DNA of 64,000 nt from a bacterium (GTDB lineage Bacteria > SAR324 > NAC60-12), in the NCBI GenBank assembly GCA_965205865.1, contig CBDBHR010000027.1, forward strand, positions 64,001 through 128,000. Direction: 5' to 3'. Both the position numbers and the translations under genes were made by a program. This document shows, in pieces, positions 780 through 9,008 of this stretch (positions are counted from its first letter, which is position 1; each line of letters begins with the position of its first letter). A model generated the notes under the pieces. The model saw nothing but the letters and a program-made list of their open reading frames with translations, was not told the DNA's origin and did not search any database.

Positions 780-788
780 TGATATACT
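780..788 (+). promoter_or_regulatory. Extended -10 promoter candidate (TGaTATACT) of the Rpn genes
   Basis: GCTTTGATATACTTA is conserved upstream of the Rpn copies starting at 834, 7176 and 47204. Confidence 0.55.
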
Positions 789-833: not shown

Positions 834-1241
834 ATGTTGAAACATCCCATTTCTCCGACAGTAGATTGTGTCTTCAAGAGCATATTGGGGTCCAAGGAAG
901 ACCAATGGTTGTATTTTTTTAAAGAAGCCGAAAACTGGAAGGAATTACCCGAAATCATCAACACCCCTGAAATGAGGCAAGCAATGGCAGTTTTAAAACG
1001 ATTTTCTGAAAAAGAAGCCGATTATCACTTATACCAAGCCCGCCAAAATGCCATCCGTGAGGAAAAAACAAGGCAAATGCTTTTGGAAGAGGCTCTGCGA
1101 GGAAAGGAAGAGGCCCTGCGGAGGGAAGAAGAGGCCCTGCGGAGGGAAGAAGAGGCCCTGCGGAGGGAAGAAGAGGCAGATGCTAAAGAAAAACGTCTCA
1201 GAGAAATCTTGAAAAAAGCTGGGATAGATCCGGATGTATAA
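834..1241 (+). CDS. Mini-Rpn A: Rpn with an in-frame deletion of the nuclease core (135 aa)
   Basis: MLKHPISPTVDCVFKSILGSKE is fused directly to DQWLYFFKEAENW...; 148 codons are missing relative to 5816-6667. Confidence 0.85.
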   Translation: MLKHPISPTVDCVFKSILGSKEDQWLYFFKEAENWKELPEIINTPEMRQAMAVLKRFSEKEADYHLYQARQNAIREEKTRQMLLEEALRGKEEALRREEEALRREEEALRREEEADAKEKRLREILKKAGIDPDV

Positions 1242-1327
1242 GCTCTTTTTCTTTGGTTTCTCACGACAACCACCTCCGTAGCAGAGACAGGCTCTTCCCC
1301 GTTTTCACGAGGACAAGTTTTGTGCGC

Positions 1328-2299
1328 TTACCAATTGAAAGGGAAGAGCAGTCGGGCCAGGAATCCTCGTTTGCGTTTCCTCTTTGCGGTGCCGTAACTT
1401 CCCTGCCCGCCCCGCAACCTGGGGTCGAACAGGTCCCTGAGGGCGTCACCGAACATGTTGAGGGAATAGACGGTAATCGTCAGGCAAAGCCCGGGCCAGA
1501 GCGCCAGCCAGGGCGCCTGCTCCATGTACTTGCGCCCTTCCCGGCTGAGCAGACTCCCCCAGCTGGGAATCCCGACGGGCAGCCCGTATCCGAGAAAGCT
1601 CAGCGAGGCCTCGGCAATGATGACACCGCCAATGTTGATTGAGAAGATGATGAGGATCGGCGCCATGATATTGGGCAGGACATGCCGTATGAGGATTTGG
1701 CTCGTGGAGGTGCCCACGGCCCGGGCTGCCAGAAAATAGTCATTCTCCTTGACACCAATCACAGCCCCTCGGACGACTCGGGAACCCCCGATGCCTCCGG
1801 TGATGCCCAGCACCACGATGATCTGGAGGAGCCCCTCTCACACGATGGACATGATGGTCAACAAGATCAGCAGCCCCGGGAAGGCCATCCAGGCATCGAC
1901 AAAGCGTTGCGCAGCCAGGTCCACTTTCCCTCCCAGGAATCCGGAAGTGACGCCGATCAGGACAGCGACGAGCACATTGAGCGTGGTCGCAGCCAGACCG
2001 ACCAGCATGGAAACCCGAGCCCCGAAAATCAGACGGCTCAACAAGTCTCGCCCTATATGGTCGGTCCCCAGCGGATACTGGGCGGATGAGCCCGTCATCC
2101 GGTCTCTCAGGTGCATTTCATCAAAGGGATAAGGCGCCAGCGCATCGGCAAAGATCGCCACCAGAATCAAGAGCAAGACGATCATCCCGCAGGCCGTCCC
2201 CAGGGGCTGCTCCTTGAGCAGTCTCATCAGGAAACCCGTCAGCCGTCCCCGTCGCTTGGGCTCACTGACTGTGGATGGTGTTTCATGAGTGTTGTTCAT
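1328..2299 (-). pseudogene. Peptide/nickel ABC permease (DppC/OppC-like) with an in-frame TGA at 1840-1838
   Basis: ORFs 1838-2299 and 1328-1816 are in the same frame. LGTDHIGRD and EAA-like AARAVG motifs; ...SIV*EGLLQ, likely GGA>TGA. Confidence 0.85.
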
Positions 2300-2603
2300 G
2301 TTCTCGATTTTTCTATAATACAGTCCCGGAGGGACGAAAGGGAATAGCCCAGCGATTCATCGCTGGGAAAAGAAACCCCCTCCTCCTCAGCTAGTCCCAG
2401 AGGGACGACACTTCTTCGATCGATCGAGTTACTGCCAAATATAACGCTCATGATGTCAAACATACGTGTTCGGGTTTTAAAATTAATGATTTCAGTGATA
2501 TATAAAAAAGTTTCACTCAATTTGAGGCTATCCACCTAAGGTGAAACAGTCAGTAATTTCATGGAGTTAGATTTTTTAACACCGTAAGGATTGACAGCCT
2601 CTT

Positions 2604-2674
2604 TGTCATCCTCGCGCAGGCGGGGATCCAGGGGATTGAAGCGAACCCTGGATTCTTGTTCAAGCCAGGAATGA
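2604..2674. repeat. REP-like double hairpin GTCATCC..GGATCC / GGATTC..GGAATGAC
   Basis: Same family as the MITE core and 54898-54972. Confidence 0.7.
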
Positions 2675-2864
2675 CAACGCTTGCGGTTGTCGCTAGTTCA
2701 TGATTTTAACATTTTGTCCCACTATAGGTGAGTAGCCCAATTTGATTAAATTTTCACGATTTGCGATAAGAAATTCAACGAAAGTCAGGTTCCCTCCCCT
2801 CCCGATGCACCCCTGCAGATCAAATGTTCTTGTGCGTTCTTGTGCGTTCTTGGCAAAATAACGA

Positions 2865-3862
2865 CTACTCATACCTGACCCTCGGGTCCAAGTAAGCATA
2901 AATCAGGTCGATCATGAGATTGATCCCCACCACCGCAGTGGCGAAGAGCAGGTTGATTCCGGACACCAACGGGTAGTCTCTGATTTCGAGTGCATCCAGC
3001 ATGAGACCCCCTAACCCTGGCAGGACAAATATGTTCTCCATGATCACGGCGCCGCCGATCAGGATCGGCAACTGCAGACCGCAGAGAGGCTGGGCGGCCG
3101 CAGCGCGGCCAATAAGCCTAGCTGAACGCGACACCACCGGGATGAGGGCATTTTTGATGGCGTGCCGGATTACCACGATCCGCTCCTTGAGCCCCTTGGA
3201 CCAGGCGGTGCGGATATAGTCCTGCCGGAGCACCTCCAGCATCATGGTGCGCGTCATCCGCATGGTGGCGGCCGCTGAAGCCGTCCCCAGAATCAGGCTG
3301 GGAATGAGGAACATGCCGAGATTGCCCAGCGGGTCTTCGGAGAAAGGAATCAGCTGCATCGGTGGCGACCAGGACCACCAGATGGCCGGGTAGATCATGA
3401 CCATCAAGCCCAGCCAGAAGTTCGGCGTGGCCAGGCCGATGATGGCGAAGGAGCGCCCCAGTCGGCGGCCGTATTCTGGCGAATCGCCGAGTAGATGCCC
3501 ACCGGCAGTGCGATCAGGAATCCAATGACGAGGGCCAGGACGCCAAGCTCCAGGGTGACGGGCAATCTGGCGAGTATCTTCTCCTCTACTATAAAACCAC
3601 CGAGCAGTGATTCGCCAAGGGTGCCGTGAAGCAAAATACCGCCCACCCAGCGGCCATACTGCACGTAGACCGGCACGTCCAAGCCTAACCTACGCTCAAG
3701 AGCTTCACGGTCGATGGGCCCACTCCCCATGTATGCCAAATCGCCCATCATGATGTCGATGATGTCGCCCGGGATGAAGCGCACGGAGAGAAAGACAAGA
3801 ATCGTCACGATGAACAGCGTGGGGATCATGAGCAGTATCCTCCTGGTGATATACGCGCTCAT
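2865..3862 (-). pseudogene. Peptide/nickel ABC permease (DppB/OppB-like), frameshifted near 3460, with an in-frame insertion near 3079-3130
   Basis: N-half MSAYITRRILLMIPTL...IRQNTAAD and C-half ...DYIRTAWSKGL...LDPRVRYE are in different frames. Confidence 0.85.
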
Positions 3863-3958
3863 TCCCCACACCTCATCGTTGTTCGGTTTAGATGGGACGG
3901 CGGCCTTCCGCCACCGTCCCACCATTCACTGTCTTGTTACTGCTTCTGAAGGCGGATA

Positions 3959-5125
3959 CTAGAAGCCCATCTCCTTCTTCAGATCTTGATCAATCCAGAG
4001 ACGGGCGAAGATGGGAAGTCGGTGCTGGCCCCCAAAGTGAACTTCTCCGTTATAACCTGTGACCCACGGCTGGAGCGCCATGTACTTTCCAGTTTTCGGA
4101 CCCCATACACGGTAGTGACCCTCTATCAGGAACATGTCGACCTCCTTGATCAGCCTCTGCTGTTCTGCAAGGTCGGTCGTGGCTTCAGCCGCTTCGATCT
4201 TGGCGTCTATCTCGGCGTCCCTCACATGGGGGAGGTTCCAATCTGACGTCGAGTGAGCCCAAACGCGGAGTATACTTGGATCAGTATTGAAACCCAGAAT
4301 TGTCATAGCGATACCTTTCAGGGTGCGTGCCGTTACCAGAGGAATAAACTGAGGTCGGTCCAGGTCCCTGATCTCTACATCGATGCCAATTTCCTTCCAG
4401 TATCCTGCGGCTATTTCCGTGTACCCCAAATCGAACTCACCGAAGTGGTTCAAGATCGTCTCGAAGCCATTGGGATAGCCAGCTTCCGCCAGAAGCTGCC
4501 TCGCCCCTTCCGGGTCATAGGCATAGCCTTTCTTGACCTCGTCGGGCCACTCGTCAAACGGCGTGTAGTAGCCTACGGCACCTTCCCCCATGACCCCCTG
4601 AGGTTGCCAGTTTGCAGTGCCCTTGTAGTGGGTATCGCTAATGGTCTTTAGGTCCAACGCCATCTGCATCGCCTTGCGCACCCTGATGTCATCGAATGGC
4701 GGCTGGTCTACCGGGAGGGCGTAAGAGGTTTCCGAACGATCCCACCACGCCATGAGCTGGATGTCAGGATTGGTGCGTATGAGGCTATCGACGATGTCGA
4801 CCGATACGATATCAGAGACACCAGCAGGGAAACCCAGGAAATCGATCCTACCGGAGCGCAGTCCCGCCAGACGTGTCGCTTCCTCCATGATGAAAAGGCC
4901 CACTAACTTGTCAATGTAAGGTAAGCGGTTTTGCGGGTACTTTTCGTCGAAGCCCCAGTAGTCGGGATTCTTGGTGTGGGTGATAGACGTGCCTTGGACC
5001 CAGTCAGTCAGCTCATAGGGCCCAGTGCCGACGAAGTTCCTCCAATCCGAAATGTCGCCGTGTTGCTTGATGACCTCAGGGGGCAATATGAATCCGTAAT
5101 GGTCCTCTACGAGGATCGTTTTCAA
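3959..5125 (-). pseudogene. ABC substrate-binding protein family 5 (SBP1), 5'-truncated
   Basis: VGTGPY and PPFDDIRVRKA motifs; C-terminus WIDQDLKKEMGF. Lacks the signal peptide and N-terminal part found in paralog 53092-54864. Confidence 0.85.
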
Positions 5126-5634
5126 TTCCTCTCACGATATTTTTCAATCGATCGGAAACCCTCTCATTCGCTAAAACAACTTAGCAATGGCATGATCCTA
5201 GCACAACAACCCAATGTCAACCCCCCAAGGCAAAATAAATGCGGGATTCGCAAAAAAACAAAAAATCAATAAATCTGCTCAAATCCGGGGACAGTCAGAA
5301 GCCGTTCAGTTCAATAACATTGAAAAAAGATTCCCGGCAAGGATTCATCGTTTTCACATCCTCCCAGGGTATTGTTCAATCGATCGAGTGGGAACCCTCC
5401 CACAGCTAATTTTGAATCAAACGAGCGGAAGTCATCTCCTTCCCTGAAACAACAAGGCATGATTTCAGCACTACTACGCGGCGCAAAGCCTATAGCAAGT
5501 TTGGATCAGGAGAATTGCGCAACAATGGAGGTCAGCTATAAAAAAATGGAGGTCAGCTATAAAAAAGATATATTGCGGTCCATCTTCGGCATGAGCCAAA
5601 AAGCGAATGTTCGCTCCACAATCCAGCGTTTTTT
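5111..5634 (-). repeat. ~520-bp SBP upstream module (second copy 52351-52854)
   Basis: Reverse-complement alignment; near-identical shadow ORFs 5372-5647 and 52312-52590. Confidence 0.9.
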
Positions 5635-5745
5635 CCAACGGCGATAATGATCGTAAACGCTTTTCCAGGGAGGTAAATCATGGGCAAGCATTCTCCACTG
5701 ACAACCCGTTTTCAGGACATACAAAATCGTATTGACGATGCTATG
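5557..5745 (-). mobile_element. IS5-family transposase remnant, internally deleted
   Basis: N-terminal motif IVNTILYVLKTGCQWRMLAHDLPPWKSVYDHYRRW is fused to the C-terminal motif KRWIVERTFA. Confidence 0.75.
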
Positions 5746-5815
5746 TTTGCTATGAATACTTTTGGCCACGCAGGGGGCGGAACGTGGTTGTCGTGAGAAA
5801 CCAAAGAAAAAGAGC

Positions 5816-6667
5816 TTATACATCCGGATTTATCCCAGCTTTTTTCAAGATTTCTCTGAGACGTTTTTCTTTAGCTTCTGCCTCTTCTTCCCTCCGCAGG
5901 GCCTCTTCTTCCCCTCGTAGGGCCTCTTCTTCCCTCCGCAGTGCCTCTTCCTTTCCTCGTAGGGCATCTTCAAAAAGCATTTGCCTTGTTTTTTCCTCAC
6001 GGATGGCATTTTGGCGGGCTTGGTATAAGTGATAATCGGCTTCTTTTTCAGAAAATCGTTTTAAAACTGCCATTGCTTGCCTCATTTCAGGGGTGTTGAT
6101 GATTTCGGGTAATTCCCTCCAGTTTTCGGCTTCTTTAAAAAAATACAACCATTGGTCTTCCCTGTTTAATGTCTCAGAATACTGCCATTTGTCCAATTCT
6201 AAAACATGGATTGAACAATGCTCCGAGAATCTTTTTTGGTTTTCCTGGTCCACTAATTGGAAGTGATGATGAAAGGCAGGGCTTTCGGGAAACAGGTTGG
6301 GAGTCAGCATCCAAATGGAAATGACCGACCGCAGTTGGGCGAATGCCTCTCCGCTTTGCAGTTGGGATCGATAAATATCGCTCCACATGTAGAGCATCCT
6401 CTCCGGCAAATAAGGAAAAACGGACAATTGAATTTCTATCTGGTAGGTGGTTCTATTTTCATCTTTGGCTTTGACATCGACAATCGTCAATTTGTCCGAA
6501 TAAAACTCGCGTTCATTGTAGGGGTTGAGGATTTCAACATCCAAAATGGGAGACTGCGGAGCCAGCACGCCGTTGAGGAAATCAATCAATAAATTTGTAT
6601 TTTCCTCTGACCCCAAAATGCTCTTAAAGACACAATCTACTGTCGGAGAAATGGGATGTTTCAACAT
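5816..6667 (-). CDS. Rpn family recombination-promoting nuclease / PD-(D/E)xK putative transposase, full length (283 aa)
   Basis: PTVDCVFK...LIDFLN...IVDVKAKD...YQIEIQ motifs; C-terminal EEALR heptad repeats; start ATG 6667 with RBS AAGGA. Confidence 0.9.
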   Translation of the reverse strand: MLKHPISPTVDCVFKSILGSEENTNLLIDFLNGVLAPQSPILDVEILNPYNEREFYSDKLTIVDVKAKDENRTTYQIEIQLSVFPYLPERMLYMWSDIYRSQLQSGEAFAQLRSVISIWMLTPNLFPESPAFHHHFQLVDQENQKRFSEHCSIHVLELDKWQYSETLNREDQWLYFFKEAENWRELPEIINTPEMRQAMAVLKRFSEKEADYHLYQARQNAIREEKTRQMLFEDALRGKEEALRREEEALRGEEEALRREEEAEAKEKRLREILKKAGINPDV

Positions 6668-6774
6668 GACAATCCTTAAAGAGGGGAACAAGAAATCACT
6701 TGTTTTTGCTATGAATACTTTTGGCCACGCAGGGGGCGGAACGTGGTTGTCGTGAGAAACCAAAAAAAAAGAGC

Positions 6775-7176
6775 TTATACATCCGAATCTATCCCAGCTT
6801 TTTTCAAGATTTTTCTGAGACGTTTTTCTTTAGAATCTGCCTCTTCTTCCCTCCGCAGTGCCTCTTCTTCCCTCCGCAGAGCCTCTTCCTTACCTCGCAG
6901 AGCCTCTTCCTTACCTCGCAGAGCCTCTTCCTTACCTCGCAAGGCTTCTTCCAAAAGCATTTGCCTTGTTTTTTCCTCACGCAAGGCATTTTGACGGGCT
7001 TGGTATAAGTGATAATTGGCTTCTTTTTCAGAAAATCGTTCTAAGACTGCCATTGCTTGCCTCATTTCAGGGGTGTTGATGATTTCGGGTAGTTCCTTCC
7101 AGTTTGCGGCTTCTTTTGACCCCAATATGCTCTTGAAGACTCAATCTACTGTCGGAGAAATGGGATGTTTCAACAT
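6775..7176 (-). pseudogene. Mini-Rpn B: 157-codon in-frame deletion plus TGA at codon 12; C-terminal ORF 6775-7053 intact
   Basis: GAT TGA GTC at 7143-7141 where the paralogs have TGT; junction ILGSKE|AANWKE. Confidence 0.85.
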
Positions 7177-7403
7177 GACAATCCTTAAAGAAGGGAAACA
7201 AGAAATCACTTGTTTTCAGTAAGTATATCAAAGCGATTGGCTAACAGCGAGCCTTATTTGTAACCAGGCATGGAAAATACTCTGGTTGCGAATCAGGTGA
7301 GACCGCTGAATCTCTCACTCGATGTCAGGCAGTCCTCTTTCATTTATCTGTTTGCCATCAATCCTCAGCCACCTGCCCATTCAGGACCCCGCACTCCTGC
7401 CCA

Positions 7404-9008
7404 AAGCCAGAGAGCATCGCAACGTTCTTCCGCTACACCGCCGGGGCTTGGATTTCGCTGGTCAACGAGACACTGGGTATCGGGGACTGGACCTTCGACC
7501 GCAGCGTGTTCGCCTTTGACACGCTATACCTGCCCAATGAAGTCATCACCGGGCACCTGGCTGAGAGCTGGGAGCACCCGGATCCTTTTACCTACGTGTT
7601 CAAGCTCCGCGACGATGTCTTCTGGCATAACAAGGCGCCCATGAACGGTCGACCCTTGAACGCGCACGATATCGAATACACATGGCAGCGGCTCCTGGGG
7701 TTGAGCGGCGGTGAGCCGAGCCCGGATATTGCGGTAGTCGGCGACCTCGCGAAGATTCCCTTCGACTCGGTTACCGCTAGCGACGACTCCACCGTGGTAT
7801 TCAAGTTGAAAGAGCCGAGTCTCATCGCCTTGAGATCCATGCTCGTGGGAGAACATACCTTCGTCATCGCTCGCGAGGTGGTCGAGCAATATGGGGACAT
7901 CCAAGACTGGCGTAATGTGGTCGGGACGGGGCCCTATCAACTGACCGATGTGCTGGAGGGCAGCAGCTGGACCTACACCAAGAATGATGACTACTGGGGA
8001 ACCGACCCGAAGTATCCCGAATACCGCATGCCCTATGCGGACTCGGTGGAGTACGTGATCATCAACGACCCCGCGGCCAAACTGTCCTTGATGCGCTCGG
8101 GGCAGGCGGATTATATGGGGTTCGCTTACCTCTCACATCTCACCAGCATCGACCAGGCGGTCAGTCTGCAGAAAACCAATCCCGAGCTGGTGCTGCACCC
8201 GTTTTCGTTTCGCGCGGAGACGGGGTTCAGTTGGAACAACCAGAAGGAGCCCTGGAGCGACATCCGGGTACGCCGGGCCTTCAACATGGCCGTCGACATC
8301 GAGTCCATCGCCCGGAACTACATGCAGGGTTGGGGTGATGCGAGCCTGGTCGGTCCAATTGGCAAGAGCGTGGTCGGGTAATTCATGCCGGCCGAGCAGT
8401 GGCCTGACGAGGTCAAGCAGTGGTATCGGTATGACCCCGAGGCGGCCGAAAAGCTGCTGGATGAGGCCGGCTATCCGCGTGGCGCAGACGGTAAGCGCAT
8501 GAGCGTCATCTTTCAGAAATACGAGTTCGTCGACCTCGGTTACTACCAGATCGCCATGGATTATCTCCGGCAGATTGGCATCGATGTGGAGATCCGGATC
8601 GTACCCCGCGCGGAATGGGGCAAAATGGGCCAGGAGCAATCTTTTATCGACTTGCACTCCGAGGTTTGGGCCGCCGAATATGGCACGCCCACGGGCCCGA
8701 TCGCTCCCTATTGGTCGCAAAACGGATGGCGCCCTCAGAATGTCAACGACGCCATGTTTGACAAGTACTTCGAAAACGCGCTGGCCGCTACCACGCTAGA
8801 GGAACAGGAGAAATGGCTGCAGAAGGCCGACCTGCGAGTCGCCGAGATGCTGTGGGTGATCAGGGGGCCACTGGCGCCGCTGTTCGGTGCCACCCGGCTG
8901 TGGATCAAGGGATACAACGGGGAAACCGATCTCGGCATAACTGTCAACAAATCCTGGCTCGCCTTAATCTGGGTCGACCAGGAGCTGAAGAAAGAGATGG
9001 GCTACTAG
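7404..9008 (+). pseudogene. ABC substrate-binding protein family 5 (SBP2), 5'-truncated, in-frame TAA at 8379-8381
   Basis: Homology starts near PESIATFFRY...LGIGDW; VVG*FMP where Tyr is expected; ends WVDQELKKEMGY. Confidence 0.85.

Follow-up and report, generated by a model that had tools for sequence, protein, structure and literature searches.

The rpn locus and its two core-deleted copies

The window analysed here, a stretch of 64,000 nucleotides (nt) from a SAR324 bacterium (NAC60-12; assembly GCA_965205865.1, contig CBDBHR010000027.1, positions 64,001 to 128,000), carries near its beginning one full-length rpn gene, which we call F, and two shortened copies of it, mini-A and mini-B, in which the nuclease core is missing and the C-terminal module is retained. 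An original prediction, made from the letters alone, took these two copies for dedicated antitoxin genes, on the analogy of enterobacterial Rpn nucleases and their small C-terminal product RpnS, which is translated from an internal start. With somewhat better than even confidence, we read them instead as remnants of decay that struck the toxin half first. The genes and frames in question are the following:

834-1241, forward strand: mini-A, a 135-amino-acid open frame made up of rpn codons 1-20 followed in frame by 169-283
between 892 and 893, forward strand: mini-A junction
984-1241, forward strand: mini-A RpnS-type frame, 85 amino acids, 80/85 identical to the F tail and of equal length
5816-6667, reverse strand: full-length rpn F, 283 amino acids, a PD-(D/E)XK nuclease with a long helical tail
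5816-6073, reverse strand: intragenic RpnS-type frame of F, 85 amino acids from Met199, with its Shine-Dalgarno at 6085-6071
6775-7176, reverse strand: mini-B, made up of rpn codons 1-20 followed in frame by 178-283
7143-7141, reverse strand: stop TGA at codon 12 of mini-B
between 7117 and 7116, reverse strand: mini-B junction
6775-7053, reverse strand: mini-B RpnS-type frame, 92 amino acids, one heptad more than the F tail

Measured against F, 444 nt are missing from mini-A and 471 nt from mini-B, which confirms the predicted losses of 148 and 157 codons with the frame kept in both. The putatively catalytic D...ExQ region is indeed gone, given that D64, E78, Q80, and R90 are lost in both copies and D11 is retained, while the C-terminal codons stay open through the last 85 in mini-A and the last 92 in mini-B, so that each copy is a stand-alone C-terminal module at a separate locus. 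Both breaks had been placed after ILGSKE, and the shared 5′ breakpoint holds, but the residues KE derive from the 3′ side of the junctions. The TGA at codon 12 of mini-B was likewise found as predicted; its C-terminal frame, described as undamaged, is open but bears two rare substitutions, a Pro to Ser in the GI[DN]P motif (1/70 tails) and an Ala to Ser (1/49), both of which are also present in protein P0241 of another assembly. The mini-B tail has F as its best match (73/92 identical, with a 7-residue gap), and the mini-A tail shows zero private changes across the 56 head and tail codons compared.

The full-length gene matches PF12784 (PDDEXK_2) with an E value of 4.5e-49 and 167.7 bits (cut-off 27.4), and TIGR01784 (Rpn) with 112.1 bits (cut-off 52.1). 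The enterobacterial analogy stands insofar as F passes TIGR01784, but F is of the PDDEXK_2 type and not of the enterobacterial one, and a Pfam-type scan of F returned PF12784 as the sole match, with no enterobacterial-type family. The Pfam family of the enterobacterial RpnA-E type is presumably PF04754. An alignment of 77 homologues shows no variation at E78, Q80, or R90 and hardly any at D11 and D64, and the family motif, together with the RpnP2 mutant set D14/R66/E86/Q88 given in a figure legend of PMC10400941, suggests by analogy that these conserved residues of F are catalytic. The structure model of F, with a predicted local distance difference test (pLDDT) of 88.4, has an alpha/beta domain at about residues 1-190 and a single helix at 209-276. 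A Foldseek search with F gave nothing at E<=0.001 and weak restriction-enzyme matches, the best at E 0.011; a sequence search of the PDB gave no solved relative (best E 0.69, 7TH0 not matched), and PADLOC assigned 0/4 proteins to a defence model. Five near-identical, distant PD-(D/E)XK-like genes are also found in the source genome, which we call G000 (C23:136692, C26:275598, C29:683360, 693984, and 701458), with 30-31% identity to F across residues 11-125.

A conserved internal start in the PF12784 clade

972-986, forward strand: internal start of mini-A, ATG AGG CAA GCA ATG, with GAGG 6 nt ahead of the ATG at 984-986

The internal Shine-Dalgarno and ATG are unchanged in mini-A (984), mini-B (7053), and F (6073), and Met199 is invariant in the 77 homologues, the most distant of which shares about 47% identity with F. 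In 19/20 copies of the own-genus type, AGG encodes the Arg three places before Met199; in distant copies that codon is AGG in 32/39 cases vs. 49/418 for other Arg codons of those genes, the genome-wide AGG usage being 10.5%, and the Fisher p for this excess overstates it because kin sequences are not independent. A second set of 83 sites taken from genome contigs gave AGG at 58/68 vs. 94/922, with ATG at 82/83. The 3′ end of the genome's 16S rRNA matches the GAGG Shine-Dalgarno, and gene callers started 49/112 short relatives at the Met199 equivalent and 2 at that of Met195. The proposed RpnS-type internal-start frame is thus kept, its conserved Shine-Dalgarno and ATG being confirmed by sequence; PF12784-clade rpn genes likely carry a conserved internal start of the RpnS type, for which this is strong sequence evidence and from which we infer translation.

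A full-length rpn elsewhere in the genome (G000:C29:153752-154602) has lost 1 nt in the TATTTTTTT run directly before the tail, with the tail frame intact, and a contig of run X5 (place 6144) shows a 1-nt loss at this site too; such a loss might switch the toxin by slippage, or it might be an error of sequencing.

Reality and history of the deletions

That the deleted copies are assembly artefacts of collapsed or mis-joined repeats is hardly credible to us, even though the region is rich in direct and inverted repeats, no single run contig spans the whole stretch, and the mini-A junction is not among the run-contig matches listed. The mini-A junction is present in 10 distinct database proteins, this one included, and the mini-B junction in protein P0131 and at a contig end in run X5; another core deletion of this genome, of 256 nt, is also a joint in runs X1, X5, and X8, and mini-A and mini-B each have sequence variants of their own. 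Since both P0131 and X5 carry the mini-B junction with Cys at codon 12, the stop of mini-B is recent or private.

The two deletions had been regarded as independent, which the sequences do not show. Mini-A and mini-B are 97% identical over 390 nt that take in the upstream region and the 5′ part, their 5′ breakpoints lie 1 nt apart (after GGGTC and GGGTCA, at Ser20), and the mini-B deletion equals the mini-A deletion plus 27 nt; the mini-B junction fits either a direct deletion from the full gene, with no extra change, or a nested one from mini-A, with one change. The 3′ ends of F and mini-B are both joined to the end of a leader of about 670 nt, and this shared downstream junction points to a tandem duplication that would have left F without the upstream TGATATACT motif. 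Conversion or recombination among the rpn copies is likely as well, because the 3′ part of mini-A resembles F at 97% over 381 nt vs. about 90% for mini-B. Proteins P0122, P0237, and P0240 comprise two mini-A-junction minis and one mini-B-like tail, all three with a longest contig of the same length (17935), and P0237, with the mini-A junction and an F-type tail, hints at a mini at the place of F in another strain, or at swapped tails.

Promoter-like motif and gene order

780-788, forward strand: extended −10-like motif (TG-n-TATACT) of mini-A, the putative rpn promoter
7222-7230, reverse strand: extended −10-like motif of mini-B, a candidate driver of F too, by presumed read-through

The TGATATACT motif lies upstream in 11/12 rpn copies of the genome having a 5′ end, with F as the sole exception. 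The predicted order of promoter, mini-B, and full-length rpn is borne out, with the motif as putative promoter, because TGATATACT precedes mini-B while F lacks a motif of its own. A scan for a terminator between mini-B and F found none, and the hairpin over the stop codon did not outperform shuffled sequences (z −0.02 to −1.31); consensus scans gave neither an internal promoter for RpnS nor a sigma-70 site on the correct strand upstream of mini-B. Contigs of the RNA runs X17 and X18 cover rpn sequence, although such contigs show no strand, start, or level and leave the paralogues indistinguishable. The two-gene toxin-antitoxin arrangement that had been proposed for this unit does not fit well, because mini-B, with a tail one heptad longer than that of F, makes a poor partner in a motif, mini-B, and F pair.

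Tail repeats and predicted binding to F

1086-1190, forward strand: 21-nt (7-residue) tandem repeats in the mini-A tail, a predicted coiled coil

Tails in this genome measure 64, 71, 78, 85, 89, 92, and 99 amino acids, mostly in 7-residue steps with 89 as the exception, and none of 34 tails matched DUF4351. The structure prediction of the complex that had been proposed as a check was made with two F chains and two mini-A tails (window 987-1238, the first Met omitted), and it scored 0.65 vs. 0.00 for the best of three controls. The mark for binding is reached by 116/157 solved complexes and by 2/215 mismatched pairs, counts that hold roughly for this job with its own alignments and multiple copies. 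The runs share at least 78% of contacts, the pLDDT of the partner is at least 76, and the confident contacts involve two parts of F: residues 225-281, where the register is parallel, and residues 45-110, among them D64, K66, and R90. The model supports the prediction that the mini-A tail binds full-length F; the score speaks for compatibility and not for specificity or inhibition, because the partner is close to F's own tail and because close cousins also pass this test (10/12 colicin pairs).

Selection, decay, and the competing explanations

The source genome, G000, has 15 close rpn copies, 7 intact and 8 broken, and its congener is named G001. Left out of the 15 were the C-terminal matches C24:122521 and C29:654794 (39% identity), which belong to other proteins, five matches of 30-31% to residues 11-125, and one of 27%; the divergent G001 copy at 2486174 was left out too. 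The in-frame deletions P0144, P0185, and P0195/P0208 were not counted, since a protein search favours open frames.

If the deletions had been selected for keeping the C-terminal frame, as the original prediction had it, an excess of in-frame events was to be seen, and it was not: besides mini-A and mini-B, the further core deletions in the genome (224, 538, and 256 nt) are all out of frame, as is the one in G010, and two more among 124 other loci are one in frame and one not, which gives 3/8 in frame (2/6 plus 1/2) where one third is expected. The tail and its start are intact in 7/8 broken copies of this genome and in 2/6 of G001, where one deletion takes out the internal start and one copy has no tail; over both genomes the tail is intact in 9/14 broken copies, with p 0.15 under a random-lesion null of two-ended deletions and 0.75 under one of point lesions. 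The check for purifying selection, based on private changes in 56 non-repeat codons of the G000 and G001 copies, gave nonsynonymous/synonymous (N/S) counts of 12/5 in broken vs. 12/13 in intact copies, p 0.21 at low power. Decay of rpn, at 8/15, compares with 59/135 dppC loci (p 0.59) and 45/139 dppB loci (p 0.15). An intact toxin of the same length and more than 90% identity is present in the genome for 1/7 orphan tails, namely mini-A, the next best being 72/85. These four results (3/8 in frame, 9/14 tails, N/S 12/5, and 1/7 matched toxins) mostly speak against dedicated antitoxin genes, and at this low power the sequences give no sign of special selection on the mini copies.

A role as selected antitoxin cassettes, in which the deletion would put RpnS under the main promoter and the orphan tails would form a trans-acting immunity library, is in our judgement unlikely. 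It would account for the mini-A junction recurring with open tails of three lengths in 8 of its 10 proteins, for the 7/8 broken copies here that keep tail and start, one of them by a deletion that stops 12 nt short of the Met199 codon, for the 80/85 identity of mini-A to F with its predicted binding (0.65 vs. 0.00), and for the recurrence in other taxa of stand-alone tails next to full genes (10 modules with no core close by among 124 loci); in E. coli RpnC, moreover, specificity is set by the number of repeats (PMC10400941). Against such cassettes stand the 2/6 of G001, the 3/8 in frame, the private N/S of 12/5 in broken copies, the two of the 10 mini-A-junction proteins that are frameshifted in the tail, which may be assembly errors, and the 6/7 orphan tails without a same-length toxin of more than 90% identity in the genome. 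Nor does G001 have a mini at the corresponding position, none having been found within 18 kb adjoining the syntenic genes. A bolder form, in which core deletion makes promoter-driven antitoxin cassettes with heptad-coded specificity, recombination keeps mini-A matched, and the other orphan tails provide an immunity library, coded by length, against rpn alleles arriving from outside, we consider decidedly unlikely.

Rather unlikely, too, is the opposite extreme, that the minis are inert pseudogenes whose tails are open merely through recent deletion and resetting by gene conversion between near-identical copies, with no useful protein produced. The equally high background decay would agree with it, as would the mosaic tails (mini-A 97% over 381 nt and mini-B about 90% to F, and the F-type tail of P0237), the stop and two rare substitutions of mini-B, and the lack of a sigma-70 consensus site upstream of mini-B in the scan. 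It is opposed by the promoter-like motif, Shine-Dalgarno, and ATG, all unchanged in mini-A and mini-B, by the mini-A tail without private change in 56 codons, and by the E. coli rpnD pseudogene, which yields RpnDS (PMC10400941).

We therefore come back to toxin-first decay, in which mini-A and mini-B would be remnants with an orphan antitoxin frame likely still expressed, and mini-A may dampen F; this we hold to be somewhat favoured. Ordinary decay in a deletion-prone, repeat-rich region would remove the nuclease core, and with the toxin half lost first, an orphan antitoxin frame would be left under the upstream promoter-like motif, from which it may be expressed. The 135-amino-acid fusion product of mini-A would be a by-product, since copies tolerate stops and frameshifts ahead of the internal start. 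According to the prediction, the tails of mini-A and F, with their 7-residue repeats, pair in register in a parallel coiled coil, and the head helix of the mini-A tail rests on the F nuclease domain; the mini-A product would then serve as an additional inhibitor of F, provided that F is toxic and is inhibited in this way. The extra repeat of mini-B would make for a poorer fit to F, should the length rule known from E. coli RpnC apply here.

Several points weigh against this interpretation. The mini-A junction is carried by 10 proteins of related assemblies, of which 8 have an open tail of 78, 85, or 92 amino acids, which suits a maintained allele, and one common to several strains because those 8 keep the tail open. 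Tail retention in this genome (7/8) has p 0.024 under the two-ended-deletion null, and 0.23 under the point-lesion null, and the contrast in N/S between broken and intact copies is not significant (p 0.21). Because the modelled partner shares 95% identity with the tail of F itself, the score may reflect self-pairing. Loss of the toxin first is not even required, because loss of the tail may also disable the nuclease, as the heading of Fig. S4 in PMC10400941 has it. Finally, transcription, translation, the toxicity of F, and its inhibition are all things we infer.

Neighbouring genes and repeats

511-900: left arm of an inverted repeat of 390 nt at 97%, covering the upstream region, a fragment of a solute-binding gene, and the rpn 5′ stub
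1328-5125, reverse strand: decayed dppC/dppB/solute-binding ATP-binding cassette (ABC) transporter cassette between mini-A and F
5114-5785, reverse strand: leader of about 670 nt with many genomic copies and a transposase-like remnant inside
7110-7499: right arm of the inverted repeat, 390 nt

That the neighbouring genes are decaying, as the prediction held, is evident from the broken ABC-transporter genes. The solute-binding gene at 7506-9008 has an in-frame stop at 8379-8384 and lacks its 5′ end, and upstream of mini-A there is a copy, itself shortened internally by about 260 nt, of the solute-binding fragment that adjoins mini-B (482-518 vs. 7759-7795; 511-595 vs. 7415-7499). The leader gave 233 blastn pieces across the genome and is also found in G001; the internally deleted transposase-like remnant within it, near 5557-5785, we take to be IS5-like from its motifs. 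The dpp/opp-type ABC cassettes are greatly expanded in G000, whose 4.7 Mb contain 135 dppC-like and 139 dppB-like loci; between a third and almost half of these are broken, and the expansion is present in G001 too. Within 7 kb of a dppC-like match lie 12/15 rpn copies, and the same pairing is seen in G001.

Comparison with known systems

In the parts of Zhong 2023 (PMC10400941) on which we draw, RpnS is made either from within rpn or from a separate gene; among these separate rpnSs genes RpnESs (ypaA) was detected and RpnCSs, RpnFSs, and RpnP1Ss are listed. All five small proteins were observed, including RpnDS from the pseudogene rpnD, and the rpn arrays are attributed to tandem duplication. 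A commentary by Koonin likewise treats decoupled second RpnS copies (PMC10400984). The system can hence no longer be called undescribed, given the published separate rpnSs genes and the rpnD pseudogene that makes RpnDS; the arrangement itself is not new because stand-alone Rpn antitoxin genes are known. In the literature that we searched, we found no further work on RpnS and nothing on core-deleted copies or heptad repeats, although the alignments in Fig. S6 of PMC10400941 may hold such cases.

Like the E. coli rpnSs genes as described in that paper, the mini copies are a separate locus for the C-terminal module, probably derived from a neighbouring full gene and arising repeatedly. The rpnSs genes, however, sit directly downstream of their parent, whereas here mini-B is upstream of F and mini-A is inverted 4.6 kb away, and unlike rpnSs genes, the minis retain from the parent both the promoter-like motif and codons 1-20, the core having been excised. 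The rpnSs of some species are DUF4351, absent from the 34 tails compared here. With E. coli rpnD, as far as the same source describes it, mini-B shares a broken long frame and an intact internal-start protein and would be equivalent in effect, but rpnD is broken by a stop codon and its expression was shown, while mini-B is a core deletion with presumed expression.

With RpnL/RpnS, F shares the TIGR01784 match, the conserved internal start, the repeat-variable tail, and a predicted 2+2 complex; in contrast, the tail repeats of RpnL/RpnS are of 4 residues and those of the F clade of 7 residues (21 nt), and RpnAS (PDB 7TH0) is a three-helix bundle, whereas the F tail is one long predicted helix. 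RpnL is a toxic anti-phage DNase, to which F is likened from sequence and model. Orphan antitoxins of type II systems may be, according to PMC7192599, leftovers of decay, anti-addiction modules, or agents that modulate active pairs; they too are antitoxin frames without a toxin, but they come from two-gene operons and here the frame is nested in the toxin gene.

Stand-alone tails downstream of a full gene are common elsewhere in the clade too: beside 114 full genes, the 124 loci hold 10 tail modules with no core close by and 3 tailless cores clear of any edge, shares that are biased because full-length or mini queries were used to fetch these loci. Tail-only copies directly behind a full rpn were seen in other taxa (L135:1479-2000; L132:3379; L136:4435; L158:3373; L106:3415; L107:3421), and L135 also has an out-of-frame core-deleted copy behind the full gene. 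The idea of a phage-borne RpnS as counter-defence was dropped, since 0/68 pattern matches in viral contigs were relatives.

In summary, mini-A and mini-B are likely a modest variant of the stand-alone Rpn antitoxin genes, namely core-deleted copies with RpnS frames of the heptad type. What they would add to the known systems is an extension of the gene-within-gene design to the PF12784 clade across many environmental bacteria, as judged from sequence, and a tail that varies in 7-residue steps, for which the model predicts coiled-coil pairing with the head on the nuclease domain. Tails of 64-99 residues in one genome offer a natural panel for repeat number vs. specificity and for cross-protection by orphan tails.

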